Positions 1,192 to 25,288 of a DNA stretch of 64,000 nt are shown here, piece after piece. Source of the DNA: Escherichia coli. GTDB taxonomy: Bacteria; Pseudomonadota; Gammaproteobacteria; Enterobacterales; Enterobacteriaceae. A program made the translations under genes and the position numbers. The notes beneath the pieces were generated by a model. The model was not told the DNA's origin. It made no database searches and saw only the letters and a program-made list of their open reading frames with translations. Numbering within the stretch: position 1 is the first letter of the stretch; each line of letters begins with the position of its first letter. Location: NCBI RefSeq assembly GCF_003018235.1, contig NZ_CP027437.1. One strand, written 5' to 3'.

Positions 1192-2055
1192 ATGAAACAA
1201 CACCAATCGGCGGATAATTCTCAGGGCCAGCTTTACATTGTACCGACGCCAATCGGCAATCTGGCGGATATCACCCAGCGTGCGTTGGAGGTATTACAGG
1301 CCGTTGATCTGATTGCCGCCGAGGATACGCGTCACACCGGTTTATTGCTGCAACATTTTGGGATTAATGCTCGGTTGTTTGCGCTGCACGACCATAACGA
1401 ACAACAAAAAGCCGAAACGCTGCTGGCGAAGCTGCAAGAGGGGCAAAACATTGCGCTGGTTTCCGATGCCGGAACGCCGCTAATTAACGATCCTGGCTAC
1501 CATCTGGTGCGTACCTGCCGTGAAGCGGGGATTCGCGTGGTGCCGCTACCCGGGCCGTGTGCTGCTATCACTGCGTTAAGCGCCGCGGGTTTACCATCCG
1601 ATCGTTTTTGTTATGAAGGCTTTTTACCTGCCAAATCAAAAGGCCGCCGTGATGCGCTAAAAGCCATTGAAGCGGAGCCGCGCACGCTGATTTTTTATGA
1701 ATCTACCCACCGTCTGTTAGATAGCCTGGAAGATATCGTTGCGGTATTAGGCGAATCCCGCTACGTGGTTCTGGCGCGTGAGCTAACCAAAACCTGGGAA
1801 ACCATTCACGGCGCGCCCGTTGGCGAGCTGCTGGCGTGGGTAAAAGAAGATGAAAACCGTCGCAAAGGCGAAATGGTGCTGATTGTCGAAGGCCATAAAG
1901 CGCAGGAAGATGACCTGCCTGCTGATGCCCTGCGCACGCTGGCGCTGCTACAGGCAGAACTGCCGCTGAAAAAAGCGGCGGCGCTGGCCGCAGAAATTCA
2001 CGGCGTGAAAAAAAATGCGCTGTATAAGTATGCGCTGGAGCAGCAGGGAGAGTGA
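1192..2055 (+). CDS. rsmI: 16S rRNA 2'-O-ribose C1402 methyltransferase RsmI
   Basis: 287-aa [31 protein letters not shown]..., tetrapyrrole-methylase-like fold typical of RsmI/YraL. Confidence 0.9.
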
Positions 2056-2158
2056 TATCTCTCCGTGGCCCCGTTTGAAGAACCCATGGGCCGCCTGCTA
2101 AACAATCAGTCTTTTTAGTGAATACCGCCGTAAATCCTCGCTCCGTGCGGACTGACCA

Positions 2159-3115
2159 TCAGGGAGCTAGTTGCGTGGTATAGTTGGCAGCGACCCAACG
2201 ATAACCCTTGCTGTTGCTTTTAACATGCCCCAGGCCAGGGAATGAGATATGGGCAGCTGCCACCCAGTAACCACCCTGAGCCGCATGTTTTAATACTCGC
2301 TCACGGGTTTTTACCGCTTGCTGTTGATCCACATCGAAATGTATCGCCACGTGAGGATCCGGCATCTGCACTGCTTTGGCATGAATAATATCACCCCACA
2401 ACACTAGCGTCTGGCCTTCACTCTCCACTGTGTACATCACGCTTCCAGGTGTATGGCCGGCCGTTGAGGTGGCCGTAATGTCTGCAAATACCGTTGCCGG
2501 TGCGATAAAGGTTTTCAGCTGACCTGCGTTGATCACTGGGCGGATGGTCTGCTCCGATTCGACAAAGGTGTGCTTCTGACTCTCTTCTACTTTCGAGGCA
2601 TTCGCCGGATTAAGCCAGAAATCCGCATCTTTCTGCTCAACGAATACCTGGGCGTTAGGGAAAGCTGGTTTGCCCTGACGGGAGATGCCACCAGAGTGGT
2701 CGGCATGAATATGCGTCAGCAGCACGGCATCAATGGTTTCAGCCGGATAGCCAGCAGCTGCCAGGTTCTCAAGCAGTTGGCCTCCATTGTTGCCAAACAG
2801 ATCGCCCGCACCGGCATCAATCAACACGCGTTGCTGACCATTATCAATAACAAATGCATTGATTGAAGTCTCCGTATGGGGTGTCAGAGAATCCTTTGCC
2901 AGTTGCTGGCGCAGTTTATCGGCAGGAATGTGGGTGAGTAATTTATCTAGCGGAATTGTCACCGTGCCGTCGGAGACGGCGGTAATACGTAGTTTGCCCA
3001 ATATCATGCGGTAATAGCCCGGTGCTTGTGTATCAGGAGGGGGCACAGGTATAGGCGTTGCTAACGCATTTACGGAGAGTACCAGTGAGGTCACCAGAGT
3101 CAGCAAAAGTTTCAT
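2159..3115 (-). CDS. Secreted metallo-beta-lactamase-fold hydrolase (unknown substrate)
   Basis: 318-aa ORF with N-terminal signal peptide (MKLLLTLVTSLVLSVNALA) and HxHxDH motif (THIHADHSGG); not part of the K-12 gene order at this position. Confidence 0.75.
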   Translation of the reverse strand: MKLLLTLVTSLVLSVNALATPIPVPPPDTQAPGYYRMILGKLRITAVSDGTVTIPLDKLLTHIPADKLRQQLAKDSLTPHTETSINAFVIDNGQQRVLIDAGAGDLFGNNGGQLLENLAAAGYPAETIDAVLLTHIHADHSGGISRQGKPAFPNAQVFVEQKDADFWLNPANASKVEESQKHTFVESEQTIRPVINAGQLKTFIAPATVFADITATSTAGHTPGSVMYTVESEGQTLVLWGDIIHAKAVQMPDPHVAIHFDVDQQQAVKTRERVLKHAAQGGYWVAAAHISFPGLGHVKSNSKGYRWVAANYTTQLAP

Positions 3116-3196
3116 TCTATCCTCGATAAGTTCTGTTATTACAGTACGGGCACCAGTATCCTTTTGCGGATAACATCATTCAAATTGATTAATATA

Positions 3197-4132
3197 ATGA
3201 ACTCTATCAGAGAAAATGATTTAAACCGGGTCGACCTCAACCTGCTAATCGTGTTCCTGGTGCTACATCGAGAGGGGGAGCGTTTCACGTGCAGCCAACA
3301 AGTTACACTTGGGGCAGCCAGCAGTCAGTGGCGCGCTGGCACGGCTGAGAGAAATGTTTAACGACCCGTTATTTGTGCGCACGGCAAAGGGGATGGCACC
3401 GACACCACGTGCACAAGATCTGGTTACGGCACTACTGCCGGTGATGGATCAAATGCAGCAGGTGATTTTTCAAAGGCCAGTTTTTACCCCAGAACAGGAT
3501 CAGCATACGTTTCGCCTGGGGATGAGTGACTGGGTCGAACGCTGGCTGATGCCTGGAATGATGGCAGATATAGCCCAAATGGCACCCGGGATTCGCTTAC
3601 AAGTCACGGCATCCGATCCTTTCCAGGATGGCGAAAAAGTGCAACAGGATAAGGTGGACGTAGCAATCTCCGTCGTGGAGCAGGTGCCCGCCGGAGTGGA
3701 ACGAGAAGTGATCACTCAAATGGGTTTTTGTACGATGTGGCATCCGCTCCAGTTATCTATCACTTCACCGTTAACCCTTGATGTATATACTGAAACCGAC
3801 CATCTTTTGGTCTCTTATCGCGGTGCAAGCAGTAGCTCTATCGATCTGATTTTGGCTGACTGCGGGCGTGGGAAGTGCGTTACGTCACGCCAAATTTCTC
3901 ATCGTTACCGTTGATGTTGAGACAGATACCGGCTTTAGCGACCGTACCGCAGGGGCTGGCAGAAGGTTGGGTAGCCGATTATGGGTTGCAATTTGCCGAT
4001 GTCCCACTCGAGGTTCCTGCTTTTACGCTCTCTCTACTCTGGAATAAGCGGCGTAATAATGATGAGGCGCTGCGCTGGTTACTAGAGAAATTACGTGCAC
4101 GAATGCAGGGCTGGGAGATGTTTTCAGAATGA
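3197..4132 (+). pseudogene. LysR-family transcriptional regulator disrupted by two frameshifts
   Basis: Three consecutive ORFs (3164-3361, 3309-3914, 3875-4132) in frames 2/0/2 together encode one LysR protein (HTH ...SVSRAANKLHLGQPAVSGALARLREMF, then substrate-binding domain); +1 shift in G5 run at 3274-3278, -1 shift near 3860-3875. Confidence 0.7.
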
Positions 4133-4189
4133 GTTTGAAAACGTAACAATGTGAACAGAAAATAAGGGCTTTCTAAATTAAATAATTCC

Positions 4190-4329
4190 TGTTGAATATC
4201 ATCGTTAGCGACAACATCATCCACGACTACCAGCAGATTTGCACCGATGGTGGATGTTCAGGTCACGCCAACCTGGCCATGAACCAGAAGGTTATCAATA
4301 CGGGTTAAGAGAATATTGAGTAATGTCAT
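4190..4329 (-). pseudogene. agaB: Remnant of PTS EIIB (mannose family, agaB-like) with premature TGA at codon 24
   Basis: ATG at 4327-4329 with AGGAG RBS; MTLLNILLTRIDNLLVHGQVGVT*TSTIGANLLVVVDDVVANDDIQQ; conserved RID..L(I/V)HGQV EIIB motif; in-frame TGA at 4258-4260; similarity ends around 4190, before the convergent LysR pseudogene. Confidence 0.6.
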
Positions 4330-4383
4330 AGTCTTATCTCCTGTTATCCTTGTCGCCTTTCATTTTTCGTTCTTTTGGCGGCA

Positions 4384-4413
4384 ATAAAAAAGGCAGATAA
4401 TTAATTATCTGCC
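4384..4413 (-). terminator. Rho-independent terminator downstream of the C-S lyase gene
   Basis: Perfect palindrome GGCAGATAATTAATTATCTGCC (4392-4413) followed on the minus strand by a U-run (A-run 4384-4391 on plus). Confidence 0.5.
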
Positions 4414-4420
4414 CTGTGGT

Positions 4421-5593
4421 TTATGCGATTTTTTGCATCCTTTCTAATGCTTGTTCAAGCCAGTATCTTTGGGTGCCGAAGTTTAAACGTAAGTAGTTTT
4501 CACCGTTTTGCACATAATGGCTGCCATCTTCAATAATGACTCCAGCGTTGCGGGCAAAATGATTGACCCATTCGGTCGCGGAGCGTCCACTTTCACTGAC
4601 ATCAATCCATGCCAGATATGACGATTCTGGTGTCATCATTTTCCATTCAGGAAAATGCGTCTTGAGGGCATCATTAAGCCAGTGGGAGTTATTGCGTAAA
4701 TAGATATTTAATGCATCCAGCCACGGTCTTGCATGCTGATAAGCCAGTGTAATTCCCCAAACGCCAAAAATATTCGGCGAAGTGATTGAGTTCATTTCCA
4801 GTCTCTGGCGAAAACGCTGCCTCAATCCTTTATTCGGAATGACTGAGTAAGATGTTTTCAGTCCCCCTAGGTTAAAGGCTTTATTTGGTGATGTTAGCAG
4901 GACCAGATTATCGTGATCGGCACATCCGGTAGCCAGGCAACTGACAAACTCGCCTTCCAGCAGGTGCTCGGCATGGACTTCATCCACGACCAGAATGACG
5001 CCGTAACGTTTACATAAGTCCGAAACCTGGCGAATCTCATCTGCCGTCCAGATTCGCCCGGAAGGGTTATGTGGAGAGCAGAAAAACCATAGTTTAGGTT
5101 TATGAAGTTTAAGCTGATCTTCAACCAGCGAAAAATCCAGTTGATAACGGTTATCCGCAATGCTTAACGGATTTGCCAGCACTTTAACCCCCTGGCGCTC
5201 TGTTGCCATGGCAAAAGGGTCATAGACTGGCGTATTCATCATGACGCTATCGCCCGGCTGGCAGAACGCCTGAACCATATAGTGCAGCGTTGAGACAGTA
5301 CCATAGGTTAGGGTGATCCAATTCTGCTCGATACTTACGTGGTGACGATCGCGCTGGAAGCCTATCACGGCCTCATAAAACTCATTAAAGGCGTATGTGT
5401 AGCCGAAAGTTCCGTGCTCAACAATCCGTTGAAAACCGTCAATTACCGCTGGTGGCGAAGTAAAATCCATATCAGCGATCCAAAGAGGGATAAAATCTTC
5501 TGCAACCGCACCGAAGCGTGAGCAGACAAACTGATGATCCCATTTGCGGCACTTGTCGCTTTTACGCTCGATAATTCTATCGAAATCGAACAT
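4421..5593 (-). CDS. PLP-dependent aminotransferase class I/II, MalY/PatB-type C-S lyase (cystathionine beta-lyase-like)
   Basis: 390-aa ORF, AGGAG RBS; N-terminus MFDFDRIIERKSDKCRKWD and overall pattern resemble E. coli MalY; 12 nt downstream of the PTS gene (operon). Confidence 0.85.
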   Translation of the reverse strand: MFDFDRIIERKSDKCRKWDHQFVCSRFGAVAEDFIPLWIADMDFTSPPAVIDGFQRIVEHGTFGYTYAFNEFYEAVIGFQRDRHHVSIEQNWITLTYGTVSTLHYMVQAFCQPGDSVMMNTPVYDPFAMATERQGVKVLANPLSIADNRYQLDFSLVEDQLKLHKPKLWFFCSPHNPSGRIWTADEIRQVSDLCKRYGVILVVDEVHAEHLLEGEFVSCLATGCADHDNLVLLTSPNKAFNLGGLKTSYSVIPNKGLRQRFRQRLEMNSITSPNIFGVWGITLAYQHARPWLDALNIYLRNNSHWLNDALKTHFPEWKMMTPESSYLAWIDVSESGRSATEWVNHFARNAGVIIEDGSHYVQNGENYLRLNFGTQRYWLEQALERMQKIA

Positions 5594-5605
5594 TTTTAAC
5601 TCCTG

Positions 5606-7177
5606 TTAAATTAAAGCTTCAAGGCCCGTTTTCACACTTTGAACTTGCGGGCCAATAATTACCTGCACACTGTGAGCATCCAGTACAACCACCGACAGGG
5701 CACCTGCATTCTTTAACGTGGCTTGATCCACTTTCGACATATCTTTCACCACCAAACGTAAACGAGTAATACAGTTATCCAGTGAATCAATATTTTCTTT
5801 TCCGCCAAGCGCACTCAAAATCACAGCATGATCATATTTAGATTTGCCTCGTGCTTTTGAATTTGCTGCAACAGCCTGTGCTGCATCCTCAGATGAGTCT
5901 TCACGGCCTGGGGTTTTAATATCATGCTTAAGGATGTACCAACGGAAAACAAAGAAATAAATAGCAAACCAAACAATACCCACCGGAAGTATTAAATACC
6001 ATTTAGTAGAAGTACCCTGCATGATACCAAATATTAATAAATCCAAAATCCCGCCATCAGTATTACCGATAGTCACGCCCAGGATTGCCATAACCATTAA
6101 GGCCAGACCGGACATGATAATATGGAATATATACAACGCAGGAGCAATAAAGAGGAATAAAAACTCAATTGGTTCAGAAATGCCAGTAACAACAGATACT
6201 AATACGCCTGAAAGCAGTAAGCCTTTAATTACAGGACGATTTTCTGGTTTGGCTGTACGATAAATTGCGTAAGCCACAGCAGGCAAACCAAACATAAAGG
6301 TTGGCATAAAGCCTTGGGATAAAAACGCAGTAACATGTGGGCTAAAGGGAAGACCGGCTTTTAATTCTGCATAGAAAATATTGAGTGCTCCGGCAACTTC
6401 ATGACCGTCGACAATTTCTGTACCGCCCGCAGGTGTGAAGCGAACCATTGCAAGCAAGATATGATGTAGCCCGAAAGGCTTAAGCAAAAGCACACCAACG
6501 CCATAAAGGAACGGGCCGAATACGCTGGTACTTTGAATAATGTGGCCAATACCAGCAATACCCATTGCAACATAGGTCCAGAGCAAAGGAATGGCCTGGC
6601 CTACTAATGATAATGTTAGCGAAGTGATGATGGGTACGAAGCGGATACCGCTAAAGAAGGCAAAGGCATCATGTAATACAGTATCCTGAAAACGTTCGTG
6701 GAGAAAATAAGTTATTACCCCGGCGATGATGCCACCTAAAACGCCCATCTCTAAGGTTTGAATACCTAATACTACAGATTGACCAACCTGCTTCATCGTG
6801 GCAGCATCGGCAAGTTGATGGGTAACAGTGAGATAATAATTAATACTCATGTTCATTAGCATATAGCCAACAAAACCTGAATATGCGCCTACTGCTTTAT
6901 TTCTCTTTGCCATTCCTAATGGAATTGCAATAGCAAACATAACAGGTAGATAAGTAAATGCAAAGCCACCTACCATTGCAATAAAGCCAAATGTAAGTTG
7001 GGTAAGCTCACCACCTAAAAAGGGGAAGTTATTAATTGTTGAGGGGCTGGTTACTGAACTACCTATACCTAACAGAAGTCCCATAAAAGCGAGTAATGAT
7101 ACTGGGAACATAAATGTTTTCCCTAAACTTTGGAAAAACTCCCAGACCCGTGACTTTATAGACTTTTCCTGTGTCAT
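5606..7177 (-). CDS. PTS glucose/maltose-family EIICB component (MalX-like)
   Basis: 523-aa ORF; membrane EIIC domain followed by EIIB domain with the conserved phospho-cysteine motif NCITRLR; AAGGAG RBS; resembles MalX/PtsG. Confidence 0.85.
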   Translation of the reverse strand: MTQEKSIKSRVWEFFQSLGKTFMFPVSLLAFMGLLLGIGSSVTSPSTINNFPFLGGELTQLTFGFIAMVGGFAFTYLPVMFAIAIPLGMAKRNKAVGAYSGFVGYMLMNMSINYYLTVTHQLADAATMKQVGQSVVLGIQTLEMGVLGGIIAGVITYFLHERFQDTVLHDAFAFFSGIRFVPIITSLTLSLVGQAIPLLWTYVAMGIAGIGHIIQSTSVFGPFLYGVGVLLLKPFGLHHILLAMVRFTPAGGTEIVDGHEVAGALNIFYAELKAGLPFSPHVTAFLSQGFMPTFMFGLPAVAYAIYRTAKPENRPVIKGLLLSGVLVSVVTGISEPIEFLFLFIAPALYIFHIIMSGLALMVMAILGVTIGNTDGGILDLLIFGIMQGTSTKWYLILPVGIVWFAIYFFVFRWYILKHDIKTPGREDSSEDAAQAVAANSKARGKSKYDHAVILSALGGKENIDSLDNCITRLRLVVKDMSKVDQATLKNAGALSVVVLDAHSVQVIIGPQVQSVKTGLEALI

Positions 7178-7314
7178 TTAATAGACTCCTTGATTTTTAT
7201 AAGCATAGTTTCAAGGTCATGAAAAAGTAATCATGACCTTTTATATTTGTGAGGTAAGTTGTTTTTTATTGTCTGAATACAGCTGCTAAGAAACTGTTAT
7301 TCACATATTTTTAA

Positions 7315-8184
<870 letters not shown>

Positions 8185-9339
8185 TTATGCCTGCCACGGA
8201 TGAATGATTACGCCTTGCACCACGCGGTTAACGGTGCCACTGGCTGATGGGGTATCCGGCGTATTGCCCATGTGCAGCGACTGCATCAGTGCAAACGTCT
8301 GGGCGTACATCAGGAAGCAAAATGCCTGCTCAACGTCGATAAAGTGACGGGACGGCGGCAGGATGATATGTGGACCGGCGGTAATAACGTCGTTGCTTTC
8401 CGCGGCGATAGCGATTACGCGCATCGCCTGGTTGTCACGACGAAGTTCAGCCAGCAGATCAAGATCATACTGGCGGGTGTAAGGGTGGCTGGAGACAAAT
8501 ACCACCACCAGCGTTTCGTTATCGACCAGCGATTTTGGTCCATGACGGAATCCGGTCGGGGAATCATAAAAGGCCGCCAGTTTACCCGCCGTCAGTTCCA
8601 GTACTTTCAGCGCCGACTCGCGTGCTGCGCCCTGTAAGCCACCGCTGCCGAGATAAACGATCCGTTTCCACGGTGCGTAACCAAACACACCTTCGCTGAA
8701 ATCGCTCAGTGAGGTTAGGATCGCCTGGCAACGATCCGCCACGTCGCGGAAGCTCTGGCTGTTGATCGTCTCAGGTGCGAAAACCGCGAGGCAGCTGGCC
8801 ATCATGGTGGTAATGCTGCTGGTCATCGCAAAGCCGCGATCGTGCGTTTCTGCGGGCATCAGCAGGGCAAACGCGTTGTCGCTGTTGATCGCGTTTTGGT
8901 AAAGAGCGCCCGCTTCGTTGCAGGTGATCGGCAGGTGATAGCACTCGGGTACAAATTGATTTGCCAGTTCCACGGCGGCGACGCTTTCCGGGCTGTTGCC
9001 GGATCGACCGAAGGAGATCAACAGCAGCGGATGAGCTGGATTCAGGTAGTCCATCGGATTGGTGACCAGATCGGTGGTCGGTACGGCGCTGAAGTTTTTA
9101 CCGGTATGGCTGGCGAGCCACGGCGCGATGATGTCACCGATAAATGCCGAGGTTCCGGCTCCGGTCAGGATTACCCGCAGATTCTCTTTGCGCAGTAACG
9201 GTTCAAGGAAGTTATTGAGCGCGGAACGTAGCGCGTCGATGTTGGTGAGTGAACGGATCCATGCGCGAGGCTGATGGCGGATCTCTTCTTCAGTCCATGT
9301 ACCGGTTGCGGCAGCAGCAGGGGTGTAATTTTCTGGCAT
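8185..9339 (-). CDS. agaS: Galactosamine-6-phosphate deaminase/isomerase AgaS (SIS domain)
   Basis: 384-aa ORF, tandem SIS domains, matches recalled AgaS length and N-terminus. Confidence 0.9.
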   Translation of the reverse strand: MPENYTPAAAATGTWTEEEIRHQPRAWIRSLTNIDALRSALNNFLEPLLRKENLRVILTGAGTSAFIGDIIAPWLASHTGKNFSAVPTTDLVTNPMDYLNPAHPLLLISFGRSGNSPESVAAVELANQFVPECYHLPITCNEAGALYQNAINSDNAFALLMPAETHDRGFAMTSSITTMMASCLAVFAPETINSQSFRDVADRCQAILTSLSDFSEGVFGYAPWKRIVYLGSGGLQGAARESALKVLELTAGKLAAFYDSPTGFRHGPKSLVDNETLVVVFVSSHPYTRQYDLDLLAELRRDNQAMRVIAIAAESNDVITAGPHIILPPSRHFIDVEQAFCFLMYAQTFALMQSLHMGNTPDTPSASGTVNRVVQGVIIHPWQA

Positions 9340-9520
9340 AACTCAATCCTTAGTCTGATGAACTTGACGTCGGGCGTTGTCGCTTTCGCTTACCTTTCGT
9401 TTCATTTCACTTGGTGATGTCTTTCGTTGATTAAAATCTATAGAAAAGAAACTGAAAGTTCAATGGAGAAAAAAGAAATAAAACGAAATTTGTGATCATT
9501 GAAAGAAAAGACAAGGGAAG
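9340..9520 (-). promoter_or_regulatory. agaS promoter region with AgaR-type operator repeats
   Basis: Arrays of TTTC/GAAA repeats (cgctttcgcttacctttcgtttcatttcac; gaaactgaaagtt; aaacgaaatttg) typical of DeoR-type AgaR operators upstream of agaS. Confidence 0.45.
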
Positions 9521-9560
9521 ATTAAAGGATGGCGTGATGACGTTGCTATGTTCACCGATT

Positions 9561-9614
9561 GCCGGATGCGGCGTACCGTAGGTCAAAGAAGACGCGTCAG
9601 CGTCGCATCCGATA
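9561..9614. repeat. REP (repetitive extragenic palindromic) element pair
   Basis: GCCGGATGCGGCG ... CGTCGCATCCGATA inverted units between agaA stop and agaS promoter. Confidence 0.5.
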
Positions 9615-9688
9615 CCCTGCACAGAGCACAACGAAAGAAAAAGAAAGGCCTTACGGGGGAAGTGAAGGCCCAATAAAGGAGCAAACCA

Positions 9689-10822
9689 TCAAAACGAAGC
9701 TAATTGACCCTGAATCCAGATTTGTTGCACATGCAGCCCGCTATCCAGCGCAACGATGCTGGCGCGTTTGCCCGGTTTAAGCGATCCCAGAACATCATCA
9801 ACACCCAGCATTTGCGCCGGATGCAGCGACGCCATATGGATGGCTTCGGCAGGCGTTACACCCGCCAACTCAACCATGTTGCGCACTGCCGCATCGACAG
9901 ACAGCGTACTGCCCGCCAGCCCACCGGACGCGGTACGGACAACGCCACCGTGCATCTGCACTTCTTCACCACATAACGTATAGCGACCATCCGGCATCCC
10001 GGCTGCCTGCATCGCGTCGGTGATGAGCACGATTCTCTCTTTTGCACAGCAACAACACAGCGACATCGCCGCCGGATGCACATGATGACCATCGGCTATC
10101 AGTTCCAGCCAGGCGCGCTTGTCCGTTAATCCCGCACCAACCATTCCCGGTTCGCGGTGATGTAAACCTGTCATCCCGTTATAGCAATGCACCAGGCCGT
10201 CGGCACCAGCGTCAAACGCGGCACGGGTTTGTTGCCAGGTCGCCGCGCTATGCCCCAGCATCACCCGTACGTTTTGCTGTTTAAGATGGCGGATGGCCTG
10301 CAATGCCCCTTCTTTTTCCGGTGCCAGCGCTACCACGCGCAAGGTGTGCTGAGAAACGGCAATCAACTGATCCAGCTCGGCAATTTCCAGCTCGCGAAAC
10401 AGCTCCGGCGGATGCGCGCCTTTATTCTGCGGCGTGAAGTATGGTCTTTCGAGATAACTCCCCAGCACTTGCGCACCAGGTCCGCCGCGTTGGCAACGTT
10501 GAGCAATACGTTTCAGCGCCGCATGAATGGTATTAAGCGGCGCGGTTACGGTGGTCGGTAACCAACTGCCGACACCTTCGCGTGCCTTGTGCATTGCCAG
10601 CTTGTCGAGCACATCCGGCGCGTCATCCATTACATCAACGCCCGCACCACCGTGTACATGGGTGTCGATGTAAGCGGGGCAGAGCAGTTCCGCATCGCGT
10701 TCAGTCACGCCCACTGGAATCGGTTCGATTGCTGCGATTACACCGTCAGCAATACGCAACTGATGGTCATCGAGCCATCCCTCTTCAGTCAGCAGCCTTC
10801 TGGCGCGCAGAACGTGTGTCAT
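9689..10822 (-). CDS. agaA: N-acetylgalactosamine-6-phosphate deacetylase AgaA (full length)
   Basis: Start chosen at MTHVLRARRLL (377 aa; track ORF extends 7 codons upstream); metal-dependent amidohydrolase; start overlaps agaF stop by ATGA. Confidence 0.85.
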   Translation of the reverse strand: MTHVLRARRLLTEEGWLDDHQLRIADGVIAAIEPIPVGVTERDAELLCPAYIDTHVHGGAGVDVMDDAPDVLDKLAMHKAREGVGSWLPTTVTAPLNTIHAALKRIAQRCQRGGPGAQVLGSYLERPYFTPQNKGAHPPELFRELEIAELDQLIAVSQHTLRVVALAPEKEGALQAIRHLKQQNVRVMLGHSAATWQQTRAAFDAGADGLVHCYNGMTGLHHREPGMVGAGLTDKRAWLELIADGHHVHPAAMSLCCCCAKERIVLITDAMQAAGMPDGRYTLCGEEVQMHGGVVRTASGGLAGSTLSVDAAVRNMVELAGVTPAEAIHMASLHPAQMLGVDDVLGSLKPGKRASIVALDSGLHVQQIWIQGQLASF

Positions 10823-11253
10823 ATTCCTTCCTCGACCGGACATTCTTCATGGCAGCGGCCTAACTCGTCCACCAAACTGGTCAGCCCACGGTGTCCACAC
10901 TCCAGCGCCTGCACACGGAACTCTTCACCGCTTAACCCTTCGCGCTCCAGCACCATCTCCAGTAGCAGTTGCAAATTGGTGCCGGTGATCACTTCACAGC
11001 CCGGTTTTTGCATCGCCAGCGTTGAAGCTACGCGAAACGGCGTGCCGCCCAGCAAATCCGTCAGAAAAACAATGCCGTCTTCACAATCGAGTTGGGCGAT
11101 GGCCTCTTCAAGCTGCGATGTAAGCAGCGCGGTGCTTGAGGTTTCGGGAAAATCGATGGCAATAAACTGCGATTGCTCGCCGAGGATTTGCTTCATTGCT
11201 TTTTCTATGCCACTGGCAAACCCGCCATGCCCTGTCAAAATAATACTTAACAT
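10819..11253 (-). CDS. agaF: PTS mannose-family EIIA component (GalNAc-specific)
   Basis: 144-aa ORF MLSIILTGHGGFASG..., EIIA-Man fold; position between agaE and agaA. Confidence 0.85.
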   Translation of the reverse strand: MLSIILTGHGGFASGIEKAMKQILGEQSQFIAIDFPETSSTALLTSQLEEAIAQLDCEDGIVFLTDLLGGTPFRVASTLAMQKPGCEVITGTNLQLLLEMVLEREGLSGEEFRVQALECGHRGLTSLVDELGRCHEECPVEEGI

Positions 11254-11270
11254 CTAATACCTCATTGTAT

Positions 11271-12155
11271 TTAAAGGAAATGGCAGAATTTACCGACGAT
11301 GCCGAGAACCACGGTAACTGCAATCAGGCGCAGCGGACTCCAGCCGCGGCGTACCAGCCAGAACATGGTCAGGGTGTAGACCAGCGGTAAGAAGGCTGGC
11401 ATCAGTTTGTCGATAACATCAGCCTGTAACTTAACCACTGCGTCGCCAGCGGTGATTTCCAGCGTGGTGCTTAAACGAACATAGGTTGCCACCAGCGCGC
11501 CGATTACCGTCATCCCAACGATTGACGCAGCATGGCCGACTTTTTGGGTATTCGCTTTAATGAGTGGAATCGCCGCCACGCCCATGCGGTAAGCATAATG
11601 CGCCAGACCAAAACGCAGCCCCAGGTGTACCACGTTGAACAGCACAATAAAGACGACTGCGCCAAGAATAGAGCCTTGTAGCGCGAGGCTTGCGCCTATC
11701 CCGCCACAAATCGGCAGTAGCGTCAGCCAGAACATCGCATCGCCAATCCCGCCGAGCGGCGCACCGACGGCAATTTTGGTGCTCTGAATACTGTTAACGT
11801 CCTGCTTAGAACGCTCCATCGCAAGGATAATGCCGATAACAAACGTCACCAGAAACGGATGGGTATTGAAGAAACCCATATGCCCTTTCATGGCGCGCGC
11901 CAGGTCGCGTTTATTAGTGTGGATCTTTTTCAGAGCAGGCAGCAGACCGTACAACCAGCCGGAAGCCTGCATACGCTCGTAGTTAAAAGACGCTTGTAAC
12001 AGCATGGAACGCCAGGCGACGCGGTTGATATCTTTTTTCGTCAGCTCTGCGCCAATGCTCTGATCTTCATACACGTTTTCATTGACGCCTGTCAGCAGTG
12101 TTTCTTCGTTTTCACTGACGTTCGGCAGGGTGGTTTGATTAGATGCCATCTTCAA
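11271..12155 (-). CDS. agaE: PTS mannose-family EIID component (GalNAc-specific)
   Basis: 294-aa membrane ORF; start uncertain (12155 or 12149), overlaps agaW stop. Confidence 0.8.
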   Translation of the reverse strand: MKMASNQTTLPNVSENEETLLTGVNENVYEDQSIGAELTKKDINRVAWRSMLLQASFNYERMQASGWLYGLLPALKKIHTNKRDLARAMKGHMGFFNTHPFLVTFVIGIILAMERSKQDVNSIQSTKIAVGAPLGGIGDAMFWLTLLPICGGIGASLALQGSILGAVVFIVLFNVVHLGLRFGLAHYAYRMGVAAIPLIKANTQKVGHAASIVGMTVIGALVATYVRLSTTLEITAGDAVVKLQADVIDKLMPAFLPLVYTLTMFWLVRRGWSPLRLIAVTVVLGIVGKFCHFL

Positions 12156-12918
12156 ATTCCTCTTTCTGTGCCGCAGGTTGAGTCGGTTCAGGAGATTTAC
12201 GCAGCAGATCGATCAGCGCCATCGCCAGCGCGGCGGCAGCAATAGCCAGCACCGGTAACTTGAGCCAGGCTGCGGCAACAAAGCCCAGGATGAAGTAGGG
12301 GATGTAGACGTTTTTCATCATGATTTTCAGCAGCACGGCAAAACCGATTGCTGGCATGATGCCGCCCGCGACGCCGAGGCCGTCGATTAATCGTTGCGGC
12401 AGGACATCAATGATGGTTTTGGCATGTTCTGCGCCGAAGTAGATAGGCAGGAAAGCGCAGAGAAAATAGAAAGTGCCGAGTGCCAGCAGTGCCAGATAGT
12501 TCACGCGTTCAATGCCGCGAGTATCGGCGTTCTCCGCCATCCGGTCGCAGCGGGACATTACGCCAGACATCACCGAGAACAGGAAGGTAATCCCCATCTG
12601 TACTGCGACAGCGAAAGGTACGGCGACACCGACCGCGACATCGGGTTTCACGCCAGTAGTAATGGCAAACGCCGTGCCGACGATAGTACCGATAATCACG
12701 TTAGGCGGTTGTGCGCCTGCCAGCGGGGCCAGCCCCATCCACACCAGTTCCAGCGTACCGCCGGTTAAAATACCGGTATGCAGATCGCCAAGTACCAGCC
12801 CGACTAACGGGCCGAGGACCACCGGGCGGTGCATATGGGTTAAGCCGTTAAACATATCCAGGCCAGCGATAAAGGCGATAATGCCCAACGCGAATGCCTG
12901 CAACAGACTGATTTCCAT
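12139..12918 (-). CDS. agaW: PTS mannose-family EIIC component (GalNAc-specific), intact
   Basis: 259-aa polytopic membrane ORF. Confidence 0.85.
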   Translation of the reverse strand: MEISLLQAFALGIIAFIAGLDMFNGLTHMHRPVVLGPLVGLVLGDLHTGILTGGTLELVWMGLAPLAGAQPPNVIIGTIVGTAFAITTGVKPDVAVGVAVPFAVAVQMGITFLFSVMSGVMSRCDRMAENADTRGIERVNYLALLALGTFYFLCAFLPIYFGAEHAKTIIDVLPQRLIDGLGVAGGIMPAIGFAVLLKIMMKNVYIPYFILGFVAAAWLKLPVLAIAAAALAMALIDLLRKSPEPTQPAAQKEEFEDGI

Positions 12919-12928
12919 GATGAATCCC

Positions 12929-13402
12929 TCAAAGTAATTTAAAGAGGTCCACAGCAGGCTCTGTCGGGACGCCCTGAACGAAGCATTCCACCCCAGCGGC
13001 TTTCAGGTCGTTAAATGCTGCGATATCGCCCGCATCCACAGAAACCGTTTTGGCGATTTGTTGCTTGCCATTGGCGTAGTGCATATTGCCAACGTTAATG
13101 CGATTCACCGGAACGCCACCTTTCACCAGCGTCAGGAAATCGGCAGGTGTTTTACAAACCAGCAGGATTTTCTGTCGATCGGCGGCGCGATGAATGTTGT
13201 CGATGACTTTTTGCAGCGTCCAGAAACGTACGGCGATCCCTTCTGCCAGTACCATTTCCATCAGGTTTTGTTGTACCGGATCTTCGGCAACCTCATCGTT
13301 GGCTACCAGCACCAGATTTGCCCCCGCAAATCCGACCCACTGAACGCCGACCTGACCGTGAATCAAGCGTTCATCAATCCGGCTTAAAATAATATTTGGC
13401 AT
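12929..13402 (-). CDS. agaV: PTS mannose-family EIIB component (GalNAc-specific)
   Basis: Start chosen at MPNIILSRIDERLIHGQVGV (157 aa; track ORF has a 12-codon upstream extension that would overlap kbaZ). Confidence 0.85.
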   Translation of the reverse strand: MPNIILSRIDERLIHGQVGVQWVGFAGANLVLVANDEVAEDPVQQNLMEMVLAEGIAVRFWTLQKVIDNIHRAADRQKILLVCKTPADFLTLVKGGVPVNRINVGNMHYANGKQQIAKTVSVDAGDIAAFNDLKAAGVECFVQGVPTEPAVDLFKLL

Positions 13403-13424
13403 AGCGTGTTCCTCTTTGTTTTGC

Positions 13425-14705
13425 TTATTGGCCTTCACAGGCTGTGTGGTACTGCGCCAGGATGTCCTGAATATGGTTGATAATGAGTTCCCGTGGCGTC
13501 GGTTGCAGCTCGCCGGAGCGAACTTTCACGTATTGCAGCGGCAGATACTGGCTGATGAGCGGCAGCGGAATCGGTGAATCCGCCAGATTACGAACCAGAT
13601 GGGCGAAAGCGTCATCAATCTGGCTGTCCGGCCAGTAATAGCGCACGCGATCCGAGTAGCTATAACCACGCGCCAGACGACGCGCGTTGCCGTCACCGTG
13701 GTAGTGGCTTTGCCAGTATTCCGGGCGGTCGAGCATCACGTTTTCCAGCACCTGACGCAGACCGGAACAGGCTTTCGCTGGTACCAGTTCTTCTTCAATC
13801 GCCGCCAGAGAAAAAAGGGCTTCACGCAGGGCGAAGGTCAGCGCCGGGCCAACTTTCAGAATGGCAAAGTGGTCAATCACCAGCTGGCGCAACGATTGCG
13901 GCGTTTGGTAATCGGTAGAGTGCGCTTCGAAAATCAGCGTTTCGTAGTTTTCGACCATCTGGCTTAATGCGGTCGCTTTAGCTGGCTGATAATCAATAAC
14001 GTTGGTGTGATCGAATTCGACGCCGGGTTGAACCACCAGGGCAATAATGCGTGGCCAGATGGCATTCAGGCCCTGCTTTTCAAAGGCGTGGCGATGGGCT
14101 TCCAGTGTGGCGCGGGCGGCATCCGGCGTGGTGACCGCCAGCTCGCTTAAGGTTTCATGCGCGCCGCCAGGTACCGGTACTTCGGTACCAATGACATACT
14201 CCAGATCGGCCGCGCCAAAATGTTCACGGCAGGTTTCTTCCGCCACTTTCGCCAGACGAGCGGCGCGTTCGGCCACGATGTCATCAGTTAAGGGAATCGG
14301 ATCGTCCTGACAGGACATGCTGCAATCAAGGTGAATTTTTTTGAATCCTGCCGCCACGTAGCTTTTAATCAAATCATCGGCATTGGCCATTGCCTGAGCG
14401 GCAGGCAGGTTTTGCCAGCGGTTTGGCCCCAGATGGTCGCCACCCAGAATCAACGCATCCTGTGGGAAATTCAACGAGTCGGCGAGCTGACAAACAAAGC
14501 CGCGAAAATCGGCGGGCGTCATTCCGGTATAACCGCCGAACTGGTCCACCTGATTGGAGGTTGCTTCAATCAGTAACGGTGTTTGGTTTGCACTGGCGTA
14601 GCGGATTGCAGCTTCCAGCACCAGCGGATGTGCGGAACAAACGGCATAAATCCCATTTGTTTTGCCCTCTTTGTGCTGTCTCACCATTTCTGTCAGATGT
14701 TTCAC
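13425..14705 (-). CDS. kbaZ: Tagatose-bisphosphate aldolase non-catalytic subunit KbaZ
   Basis: 426-aa ORF, GTG start; [33 protein letters not shown]... Confidence 0.9.
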
Positions 14706-14953
14706 TTTCCTCTCCAGTTCAGATTACTGCGATATTAATCTTTCGTTTTGTTTCAGTTGATACTGCGCCATGGTGAGATAAAAATAAAACGAAAGATAAT
14801 AGTTTTCTGATCTGATTCACAAAAGAAACATAATGAAAGCCACTGAAACGAGAGTAGCTTGCGCCAATGGGTAAGGTGGGCTTGCATTTGCTTAATAGAA
14901 AGGCGTTAATAGGCAAAACGAAATGAAACGAAAGTTTTACGAAAGGACTTACT
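14706..14953. promoter_or_regulatory. Divergent kbaZ/agaR promoter region with AgaR operator repeats
   Basis: Multiple copies of TTTCGTTTTGTTTC / AAACGAAATGAAACGAAAG type repeats in the 248-bp divergent intergenic region. Confidence 0.5.
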
Positions 14954-15763
14954 ATGAGTAATACCGACGCTTCAGGCGAGAAGCGAGTGACAGGCACCAG
15001 TGAGCGACGAGAGCAGATCATTCAACGCCTGCGCCAGCAAGGAAGTGTGCAGGTTAACGATCTGTCGGCATTGTATGGCGTATCTACTGTGACGATCCGC
15101 AACGATCTGGCGTTTCTGGAAAAGCAGGGGATCGCTGTGCGTGCCTATGGCGGCGCGTTGATCTGCGATAGCACGACGCCGTCAGTCGAGCCATCAGTGG
15201 AAGATAAAAGCGCGCTGAACACCGCAATGAAACGCAGCGTTGCGAAAGCTGCCGTTGAGTTGATTCAGCCAGGTCATCGGGTAATCCTCGATTCCGGGAC
15301 CACCACTTTTGAGATTGCTCGTCTGATGCGCAAGCACACTGACGTAATTGCGATGACCAACGGTATGAACGTGGCTAATGCGTTGCTGGAAGCGGAAGGC
15401 GTTGAGCTGCTGATGACCGGCGGGCATTTGCGCCGTCAGTCGCAATCTTTTTACGGCGATCAGGCTGAACAATCGCTGCAAAATTACCACTTCGATATGC
15501 TGTTTCTTGGCGTAGATGCGATCGATCTGGAGCGCGGCGTCAGCACGCATAATGAAGATGAAGCCCGTTTAAACCGTCGGATGTGCGAAGTTGCGGAACG
15601 GATCATCGTGGTCACCGATTCCAGTAAGTTCAATCGTTCCAGTTTACATAAGATCATTGATACTCAACGTATCGACATGATCATTGTTGATGAAGGCATT
15701 CCTGCGGATAGTCTGGAAGGACTGCGAAAGGCTGGGGTTGAAGTGATTCTGGTCGGGGAGTGA
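14954..15763 (+). CDS. agaR: DeoR-family repressor of the aga regulon AgaR
   Basis: 269-aa ORF with N-terminal HTH and C-terminal DeoR sugar-binding domain. Confidence 0.9.
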
Positions 15764-23509: not shown

Positions 23510-24697
23510 CTATATTGCATTTAAAAGGTCGTAATTATACGTATAGTCCTCTCTGGTAAAATATTGATTCTCTGAGTTATAAGCTTCATATGTATTATAT
23601 TTTACGACTTCAAAGCAATTGTCTGAAGAATTTTCGTCTTTCTCGAGTGTATTATCTGGAAGGAATTCCTCTGAGCTAGAGTCCTCTATGTTTAAATCTG
23701 TATTGTAATTAATTTTTGGATCGATTAGATAAGCATTTCCTTTGACGCTTTCATAATCTTTAATGATTATATCGATGTAATAATCTATTTTTTCTGATGA
23801 GAATGCTTTCATCTCTGGTAATCTAATTCTGTTCAAGTAATTGTTAATTTTCGATGAGCTTTTATATATTTCTTTTGTTAATTCATTTTCTAATTCATCT
23901 GTTAGAGTTGCTCTTGGTATAGATTCTATAATTGCAAGTCTCATAATTTTTAATTGTTCTTCGGTAATATCCCCAAGCGCATTTAAACAACTTTCGACAA
24001 GCTTAATTTTTTCTTCAGAATACATATCGCTAATGCTTGTTATAACAGGCGTTATTTTTAGTAAATAATCCCAGGAGATTGTGGCGTTTTGTGTTGAACT
24101 AACGAAATTTACCTGAAACATGTTGGCATTAGTAAAATCTGTGTCATCCAATTTAAAAGGATTTAAAATTGTATTGGCCATATGTTTATCTGTAAAATCA
24201 TAAAGTTCTAAATCGACATTCCGTAAGTCCAGAGAGGATAGATCAACTATACCTCCAGTCCCACAACTAAAGATTACGTTCAACCTCCTGATTTCATTGT
24301 AAATGTCTTTCAATGGGCAATTAACATTGATATTGCCTGTGGATATTTCCTGGTTTTTTAACGGTTCATTAATGGTAAGTTCACAGGTATTGTCTGATCG
24401 TTGAATAATTCGGGCGTTATAACCTAAAAAATCCAGACGAAGAGACGAGTCATTATAAAGAATTACATTTTGTAAGTACGCTAATTCTTTTTGAAAATCA
24501 CCAGTGATAATGCATTTCCCACCTGGTTGTAACGCGTTAAGTAAAGTGACCATTTGAACAGAGGTCTGTTTTAGTTTTTCTATGCCTGGTGCTAGTGCTT
24601 CGAGGTTATTTCCTATGGGGCTTTCAGGAAGATCATTCATTTTTCGACGGGCTAAATCACAACTAATATCATTACCAATTGATGAAACAGGGGACAT
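23510..24697 (-). CDS. yhaC: Pentapeptide-repeat-like protein YhaC
   Basis: 395-aa ORF in strongly AT-rich DNA; matches recalled YhaC position and length. Confidence 0.8.
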   Translation of the reverse strand: MSPVSSIGNDISCDLARRKMNDLPESPIGNNLEALAPGIEKLKQTSVQMVTLLNALQPGGKCIITGDFQKELAYLQNVILYNDSSLRLDFLGYNARIIQRSDNTCELTINEPLKNQEISTGNINVNCPLKDIYNEIRRLNVIFSCGTGGIVDLSSLDLRNVDLELYDFTDKHMANTILNPFKLDDTDFTNANMFQVNFVSSTQNATISWDYLLKITPVITSISDMYSEEKIKLVESCLNALGDITEEQLKIMRLAIIESIPRATLTDELENELTKEIYKSSSKINNYLNRIRLPEMKAFSSEKIDYYIDIIIKDYESVKGNAYLIDPKINYNTDLNIEDSSSEEFLPDNTLEKDENSSDNCFEVVKYNTYEAYNSENQYFTREDYTYNYDLLNAI

Positions 24698-24718
24698 TAT
24701 TTTATCCTTTATAAATAA

Positions 24719-25288
24719 TCAATAAAAATCATTATTAAAATGATCGGGTGAAAAAAAGAGAATTTGCCAACAATCTGAAGGAATGGCTGTTTTATTAAAG
24801 TACGTAGGGGGGGTTAAGATGGCTTCTTTTCGGGTGAATTTTGCACAATACTTAGAAATCGTCTCCTTAATATATTCCAGCTCTTTTTTATTGACGACTG
24901 AGCAAGTACATTGTTCACCAAAAGGTGCAAAAGTGCCTACATCTAATGTTTGTATGATGTAATCGTCATGTTCTCCTGTAGAAATATCTATGATGAATGG
25001 ACTCATATTTTCCGGTTGGATTCGGATCATGACAGAAGGAATATCGCCTTGATAGAAATTCAATGCAGTAATTGCAGATAATACTCTCCGCAGTTCATTA
25101 CTTATACTGTAAATTTTATTAACGTCATTGGTGGAGACAATTTCTGCAAACTTTCTTTTTACCGTCCAATAATCAATATTTCTATTGTGATTGTTAACCA
25201 CTGCGTGCATTGGCGGGATTGAAGGGTGAAAAATATGTGCAATTGGGAAGCCTTTCATTGATGCCTGCCTTGTCATCATGACAAACAA
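24719..25288 (-). CDS. yhaB: Uncharacterized protein YhaB
   Basis: 189-aa ORF (possible start a few codons downstream), 21 nt upstream of yhaC, AT-rich. Confidence 0.7.
   Translation of the reverse strand: MFVMMTRQASMKGFPIAHIFHPSIPPMHAVVNNHNRNIDYWTVKRKFAEIVSTNDVNKIYSISNELRRVLSAITALNFYQGDIPSVMIRIQPENMSPFIIDISTGEHDDYIIQTLDVGTFAPFGEQCTCSVVNKKELEYIKETISKYCAKFTRKEAILTPPTYFNKTAIPSDCWQILFFSPDHFNNDFY

Follow-up and report, generated by a model that had tools for sequence, protein, structure and literature searches.

Conserved TTTC repeats as probable AgaR operators in the kbaZ-agaR and agaS control regions of an Escherichia coli aga locus

Two intergenic regions in the aga locus of an Escherichia coli strain are crowded with the tetramer TTTC and its complement GAAA. 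Are these repeats the binding sites of AgaR, the repressor encoded beside them, or do they have another origin? We addressed this question in a stretch of 64,000 nucleotides that we call the window. A sequence-only reading had proposed that dense repeat arrays in the kbaZ-agaR divergent region and upstream of agaS fit the degenerate operator pattern of AgaR, that they amount to at least four to five copies, and that their number suggests cooperative repression of the divergent promoters and of the internal agaS promoter. We found six sites that very probably (probability about 0.93) are operators of AgaR, the product of the agaR gene at 14954-15763. The evidence consists of motif scans, a comparison with K-12 and with other Enterobacterales, and published work on AgaR. 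Which promoters the sites control, and how they act together, can be proposed with graded confidence.

The locus and its variable surroundings

Nucleotide matches and annotation identify the window as the E. coli aga (N-acetylgalactosamine) locus. The stretch around the repeats is matched at 95-99.8% identity by more than 5300 complete E. coli genomes, where agaR/kbaZ and agaS/nagA/agaA are annotated, and we took the gene order from the best-matching genome and from K-12 MG1655. The agaR gene lies on the plus strand, has its ATG at 14954 and encodes a repressor of the DeoR/GlpR family with 269 amino acids. The gene is intact; its product scores 465 bits against the NCBIfam AgaR equivalog NF040755 (cutoff 260), and the protein is 100% identical to K-12 AgaR in a tblastn search. 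The other genes of the locus are on the minus strand. kbaZ (agaZ; 13425-14705), with a GTG start at 14705, heads the kbaZ-agaVWEFA operon, in which agaV, agaW, agaE and agaF lie between kbaZ and agaA (9689-10843). A second operon is headed by agaS (8185-9339) and includes kbaY (7315-8172). The first repeat-rich region, 14706-14953, is exactly the 248-bp divergent spacer between the kbaZ start and the agaR ATG. The second, 9340-9520, is the agaS-adjacent part of the agaA-agaS spacer, and is the agaS promoter region.

Downstream of kbaY (2000-7300), the window's strain has no agaBCDI. At the place of these genes, we found a malX-like PTS IIBC gene (5606-7177, minus strand) and a gene for a C-S lyase of the MalY/PatB family (4421-5593, minus strand). 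The same stretch contains a LysR-type regulator fragment or open reading frame (3309-3914, plus strand) and a gene for an MBL-fold, AidB-like lactonase (2159-3115, minus strand). This layout is common to only 30 of 5426 complete E. coli genomes when at least 80% of the query must be matched (best identity 97.7%); an example is O145:H28. Without agaBCDI, the strain is expected to be without a galactosamine-specific PTS. On the other side of agaR, between rnpB and tdcR (23510-25288), the window has an intact yhaC (395 amino acids; 23510-24697, minus strand) and a 189-amino-acid open reading frame. At this position, strain A36, which matches the agaR region best, has no more than gene fragments, a difference that is ordinary strain-to-strain variation.

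Six sites that fit the AgaR operator

The arrays are as dense as had been claimed. The two strings quoted in the sequence-only reading are present in the divergent spacer, TTTCGTTTTGTTTCAG at 14741-14756 and AAACGAAATGAAACGAAAGTTTTACGAAAGG at 14916-14946. This spacer has a combined TTTC and GAAA count of 13, compared with 3.0 +/- 1.6 (maximum 10) in 5000 composition-matched shuffles. The agaS upstream region (9340-9520) also has a count of 13, compared with 2.2 +/- 1.4 (maximum 11) in as many shuffles. Measured in 248-bp intervals across the 64 kb, the two regions are the densest, with 14 tetramers each; the mean is 3.1 and the next-best interval has 10. Both regions are AT-rich (63-65%), and it could be supposed that the tetramers are so dense merely through the base composition of such intergenic DNA, without any specific function. 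However, the observed count was not reached in any of the 5000 shuffles.

Motif scans break this density down into discrete sites. The core pattern TTTCRTTTYRTTTY occurs eight times with at most one mismatch, where 0.59 matches would be expected, and seven of the eight are inside the two regions. We also searched with the 24-bp sequence WRMMTTTCRTTTYRTTTYNYTTKK, which is reportedly the AgaR consensus of Ray & Larson 2004 and of the EcoCyc summary. With up to three mismatches allowed, it has five matches in the 64 kb (0.12 expected), two of them perfect, and all five are in the two regions. A PWM built from the aligned blocks of other species, with the window left out, finds six sites of 27-32 bits, four in the divergent spacer and two ahead of agaS. 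The next non-overlapping match in the window reaches 11.4 bits, and the best match in shuffled sequence 16.3 bits. Both scans thus uphold the proposed fit to the AgaR operator pattern. The count of at least four to five copies was right in spirit, with four plus two strong sites by the PWM.

We designate the sites of the divergent spacer O1 to O4, beginning at the kbaZ side. O1 (AATCTTTCGTTTTGTTTCAGTTGA, 14737-14760) is nearest kbaZ and is the only one of the four on the plus strand. It scores 30.7 bits, matches the 24-bp consensus with three mismatches and is identical in K-12. O2 (TATCTTTCGTTTTATTTTTATCTC, 14775-14798, minus strand) scores 28.7 bits and includes a match to the core pattern at 14781-14794. 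O3 (TGGCTTTCATTATGTTTCTTTTGT, 14819-14842, minus strand) scores 27.2 bits, has two mismatches to the consensus and overlaps a CRP-like site by 3 bp. O4 (AAACTTTCGTTTCATTTCGTTTTG, 14914-14937, minus strand) scores 31.5 bits and matches the consensus perfectly; 29.5 bp separate its centre from the agaR ATG downstream. The two sites upstream of agaS are S1 (TACCTTTCGTTTCATTTCACTTGG, 9391-9414, plus strand), with 31.9 bits and no mismatch, and S2 (CAAATTTCGTTTTATTTCTTTTTT, 9469-9492, minus strand), with 28.1 bits and one mismatch.

The sites share a simple anatomy. Each is a row of 5-bp units (N-TTTC), three to four in succession, that can be written as CTTTC / RTTWY / RTTTY / NNTTN, and conservation falls along the run of pentamers. 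A distance of 10 bp separates the first TTTC from the third, which places both on the same helix face. The operators are asymmetric and have no dyad symmetry. A published description of the E. coli AgaR sites as 'palindromes' (PMC4694137) is therefore one that we reject, since the sites are direct 5-bp repeats.

The operators of K-12 are nearly the same. All 15-bp cores are identical to those at the homologous K-12 positions, in regions for which AgaR binding has been reported. The divergent spacer corresponds to K-12 3278666-3278913 in reverse and differs from it by 5 SNPs in 248 bp, of which one is in an operator, at a weakly constrained position in the O3 flank (14840). S1 has a single flank difference, at position 2, where the window has A and K-12 has G, and S2 is identical. 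The AgaR operators of the K-12 aga/gam regulon are reported to have been treated, with footprinting, by Ray & Larson 2004 (Mol Microbiol 51:813) and again by Leyn et al. 2012 (JBC 287:28047). This regulon resembles that of the window in locus, repressor, operator cores and the asymmetric, T-rich consensus. By contrast, K-12 lacks the full agaVWEFA segment of the window's strain, and the latter lacks agaBCDI.

In the literature, AgaR binds the PZ, PR and PS regions and represses all three promoters, and GalNAc or GalN relieves this repression. Deletion of agaR makes the regulon constitutive, and the aga genes are induced 30- to 500-fold in vivo. A reporter study used an AgaR site from PkbaZ, given as CTTTCGTTTCATTTTCGTTT (PMC8667592 Table S3). 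This site corresponds to CTTTCGTTTCATTTCGTTTT in the window (14915-14934, minus strand), which is inside O4, with one T placed differently. The mismatch may be an error of typing or of PDF reading, or may reflect the construct that was really used. A single AgaR site at +1 of a synthetic promoter gave no more than about 10-fold repression (PMC8667592).

Not every tetramer in the two regions belongs to an operator. Those at 14845-14848, 14941-14944, 9422-9425, 9384-9387 and 9501-9508 are poorly conserved (0.19-0.54), and this is a point in favour of chance as their origin. Likewise, the tail ACGAAAGG (14939-14946) of the second quoted string is poorly conserved, and the tetramer within it at 14941-14944 overlaps the Shine-Dalgarno sequence of agaR. 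The third-densest interval of the window, around 21720 at the garR-garK junction, has scattered tetramers and no PWM match, and we attribute it to chance.

We also considered a seventh operator at 9633-9646, a little beyond the second repeat-rich region, which contains three GAAA (TTTC on the agaA-sense strand) and reaches 11.4 bits, and rejected it. The run TTTCTTTTTCTTTCG at 9632-9646 on the minus strand is most plausibly the T-tract of the first operon's terminator. It belongs to a terminator-like hairpin, GGGCCTTCAC...GTAAGGCC, that follows the agaA stop codon (9632-9671, minus strand), was recognized by its fold and is moderately conserved. A terminator scan missed the hairpin at 9632-9671, probably owing to a bulge in its stem. 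A terminator after agaA is consistent with agaS having its own promoter. Between this terminator and the agaS promoter is a REP/BIME-like element with the sequence GCCGGATGCGGCG... (approximately 9535-9620). Compared with K-12 and strain A36, the left part of this element is strongly divergent and the flanks are conserved.

Conservation of sites and spacing across Enterobacterales

We compared 80 loci that have AgaR orthologues (81-99% identity), with a single genome standing for each species of Enterobacterales. The set covers Escherichia, Citrobacter, Klebsiella, Raoultella, Enterobacter, Kluyvera, Salmonella arizonae and diarizonae, Yersinia, Serratia, Buttiauxella and Cedecea, among others. 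The alignments comprised 73 distinct kbaZ-agaR spacers and 58 agaS upstream regions. The spacers of other species are 58-94% identical to that of the window, with a median of 71%.

Conservation in these spacers is arranged in blocks. The 15-bp cores of O1 to O4 have values of 0.94, 0.96, 0.96 and 0.98, respectively, whereas the neighbouring spacer at 14843-14879 has 0.31. Upstream of agaS, S1 has a conservation of 0.80. The ribosome-binding sites of kbaZ and agaS are also conserved blocks. Within the 1.24 Mb of the 80 loci, 317 of 319 consensus matches fall either between kbaZ and agaR or ahead of agaS. These species yield a consensus, WAYCTTTCRTTWYRTTTYNNTTNN (WAYCTTTC-RTTWY-RTTTY-NNTT), that is essentially the same as the 24-bp sequence used above. 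Taken together, the shuffles, the conservation and the specificity of the matches exclude a compositional accident as the explanation, and we give it a negligible probability.

The arrangement of the sites is also conserved. From the kbaZ side, the order of orientations is + - - - in 58 of 74 spacers. Among these 58 species, the centres of O1 and O2 are 38 bp apart in 56, those of O2 and O3 are 44 bp apart in all, and those of O3 and O4 are 95-98 bp apart in 56. The centre of O4 precedes the agaR ATG by 28.5-30.5 bp across species, and the length of the whole spacer is 248-251 bp in 66 of 74. Upstream of agaS, there is one site per orientation in 45 of 58 regions, and the S2-S1 distance is 77-79 bp in 41 of these 45. 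In PZ as in PS, the promoter-proximal site runs opposite to those upstream of it, such that O1 faces O2 and S1 faces S2.

The repeats could instead act in RNA, as leader structures of agaR or agaS, or could be residues of pentanucleotide slippage, i.e., a microsatellite. O4 and S1 are probably in transcribed leaders, as judged from the candidate promoters described below, and one locus gives the slippage idea a concrete example. In Citrobacter sp. NCU1, the site at the O1 position has expanded into CTTTC(GTTTT)7, so that the operator's own pentanucleotide unit forms a microsatellite; this locus is also without agaV and has a more divergent agaS (70% identity). Against both variants, a scan of 9000-15200 met no Rfam family, sites are found on either strand and upstream of promoters as well, nearly all species have 3-4 units, and the spacing between sites is kept at the DNA level. 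We therefore consider an RNA-level or slippage origin highly improbable, and favour operators read by AgaR as DNA.

Candidate promoters and a model of repression

Several other elements are interleaved with the operators. A CRP-like site, TCTGATCTGATTCACA (14806-14821, plus strand), lies between O2 and O3, has one mismatch to TGTGA-N6-TCACA and a conservation of 0.84. It is centred about 61 bp away from the putative kbaZ start, and matches to the CRP consensus occur at chance level window-wide (26 compared with 24.7 expected). The agaZ/kbaZ promoter reportedly requires CRP. On the agaR side, the block CTTGCATTT (14880-14888) is conserved, as is GAAAGGCGTTAATA (14898-14911, plus strand; 0.95), which contains an orphan GAAAG unit and a possible agaR -10 and is not a full operator by the PWM. 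Upstream of agaS, the block TTGAACTTTCAGTTTCTTTTCTATAGATT (9435-9463, minus strand; 0.86) is the putative agaS promoter, with TTGAAC as -35 and TAGATT as -10. The spacer of this block contains an operator-like CTTTC-AG-TTTC-T-TTTC, which we call S3; it reaches 7.2 bits by the PWM and is not canonical. Strongly conserved TTTC/GAAAG units occur inside the putative -35/-10 spacers of both promoters, as CTTTCAGTTTCTTTTC for agaS and as GAAAGG beside TTAATA for agaR, and score at most 7.2 bits. Their role may be that of promoter elements or of weak, auxiliary contacts for AgaR.

These elements could suggest that a different factor reads the repeats, such as a paralogue of the DeoR family, CRP or a nucleoid protein, or that the repeats serve as bending A/T-tracts or UP elements, with AgaR being incidental. 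The CRP-like site among the operators agrees with this idea, and the blocks at 14880-14888, 14898-14911 and 9435-9463 are probably promoter elements rather than operators. However, the motif strictly co-occurs with agaR and its regulon in 80 species, and AgaR is the binder according to the literature. Moreover, the 20-mer derived from O4 confers AgaR-dependent regulation on a synthetic promoter (PMC8667592). A binder other than AgaR, or a role in DNA structure alone, thus appears very unlikely, and we retain AgaR as the protein that reads the six sites.

In the absence of N-acetylgalactosamine or galactosamine, AgaR would occupy its operators and keep PZ (kbaZ-agaVWEFA), PR (agaR) and PS (agaS-kbaY and following genes) off. 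The positions of the sites relative to candidate promoters fit such a role. Assuming that the CRP-like site works as a class I site at -61.5, kbaZ transcription would start at approximately 14752-14753, with CAGTAT (14765-14760, minus strand) as the -10. O1 would then span the kbaZ start and O2 the -35 region, and O3 would abut the CRP site at about -61. For agaR, the candidates are TTGCAT (14881-14886) as -35 and GTTAAT/TTAATA (14905-14911) as -10; on this basis, O4 would lie at the transcription start or immediately beyond it and be an autoregulatory operator. For agaS, with the candidate -35 at 9463-9458 and the candidate -10 at 9440-9435, S2 would lie at about -41 to -64, upstream of the -35, and S1 at about +14 to +37, in the leader. 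A sigma-70 promoter scan gave two promoter-like matches on the plus strand of the divergent region; it found no minus-strand promoter for kbaZ and, at its threshold, none for agaS.

Full repression would require several sites together, possibly through an AgaR oligomer that bridges O1 with O2 and S1 with S2. Joint action of several sites is favoured by the fixed spacing together with the difference between about 10-fold repression from one site and 30- to 500-fold induction in vivo. The cooperative repression that had been suggested from the number of copies is plausible given this spacing.

A more specific version of this model is tentative, and we regard it as possible rather than probable. 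The nearly fixed geometry, with the convergent pairs O1/O2 and S1/S2, O3 beside the CRP-like site and O4 95-98 bp farther out, may be the imprint of a defined complex of AgaR and DNA, in which an oligomer bridges the inverted operators across each promoter, prevents CRP from activating PZ, and links the autoregulation of agaR with the repression of kbaZ through one shared loop. The orphan TTTC units at 9438-9461 and 14898-14903 would serve as low-affinity contacts. The fixed number, orientation and spacing of the sites make such an assembly, with a loop and anti-activation at the CRP site, a testable idea. A PDB search gave no structure of AgaR or of AgaR with DNA, and its only related entry was the C-terminal domain of DeoR (7l6l). 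Likewise, we found neither a defined AgaR-DNA assembly nor a solved structure of 5-bp direct-repeat recognition by a DeoR/GlpR-family protein in the literature and the PDB.

The arrangement has parallels in E. coli. Multi-operator repression by GlpR and DeoR resembles the aga case in the repressor family, in the presence of several operators per control region and in their overlap with promoters, which for AgaR is deduced from the candidate promoters. The fixed distances between operators in the aga locus are compatible with cooperative binding or looping, as in those systems. DeoR operators are palindromes, in contrast to the direct 5-bp repeats of AgaR. The AgaR regulators of Streptococcus have the same name and regulate the GalNAc utilisation pathway as well (PMC4694137, PMC5018945). 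However, they belong to an unrelated family, GntR/HutC, and have other operators, and are thus analogues and not homologues of E. coli AgaR.

The repeats are the operators already known for AgaR in the aga regulon of enterobacteria; the fixity of site number, orientation and spacing across species is mildly new. The sites account for the N-acetylgalactosamine genes of this strain staying silent until the sugar is present. The results obtained in K-12 carry over to the strain, with little importance beyond correct annotation. Regardless, the cross-species operator matrix could guide mechanistic or structural study of how a repressor of the DeoR/GlpR family reads tandem 5-bp repeats.
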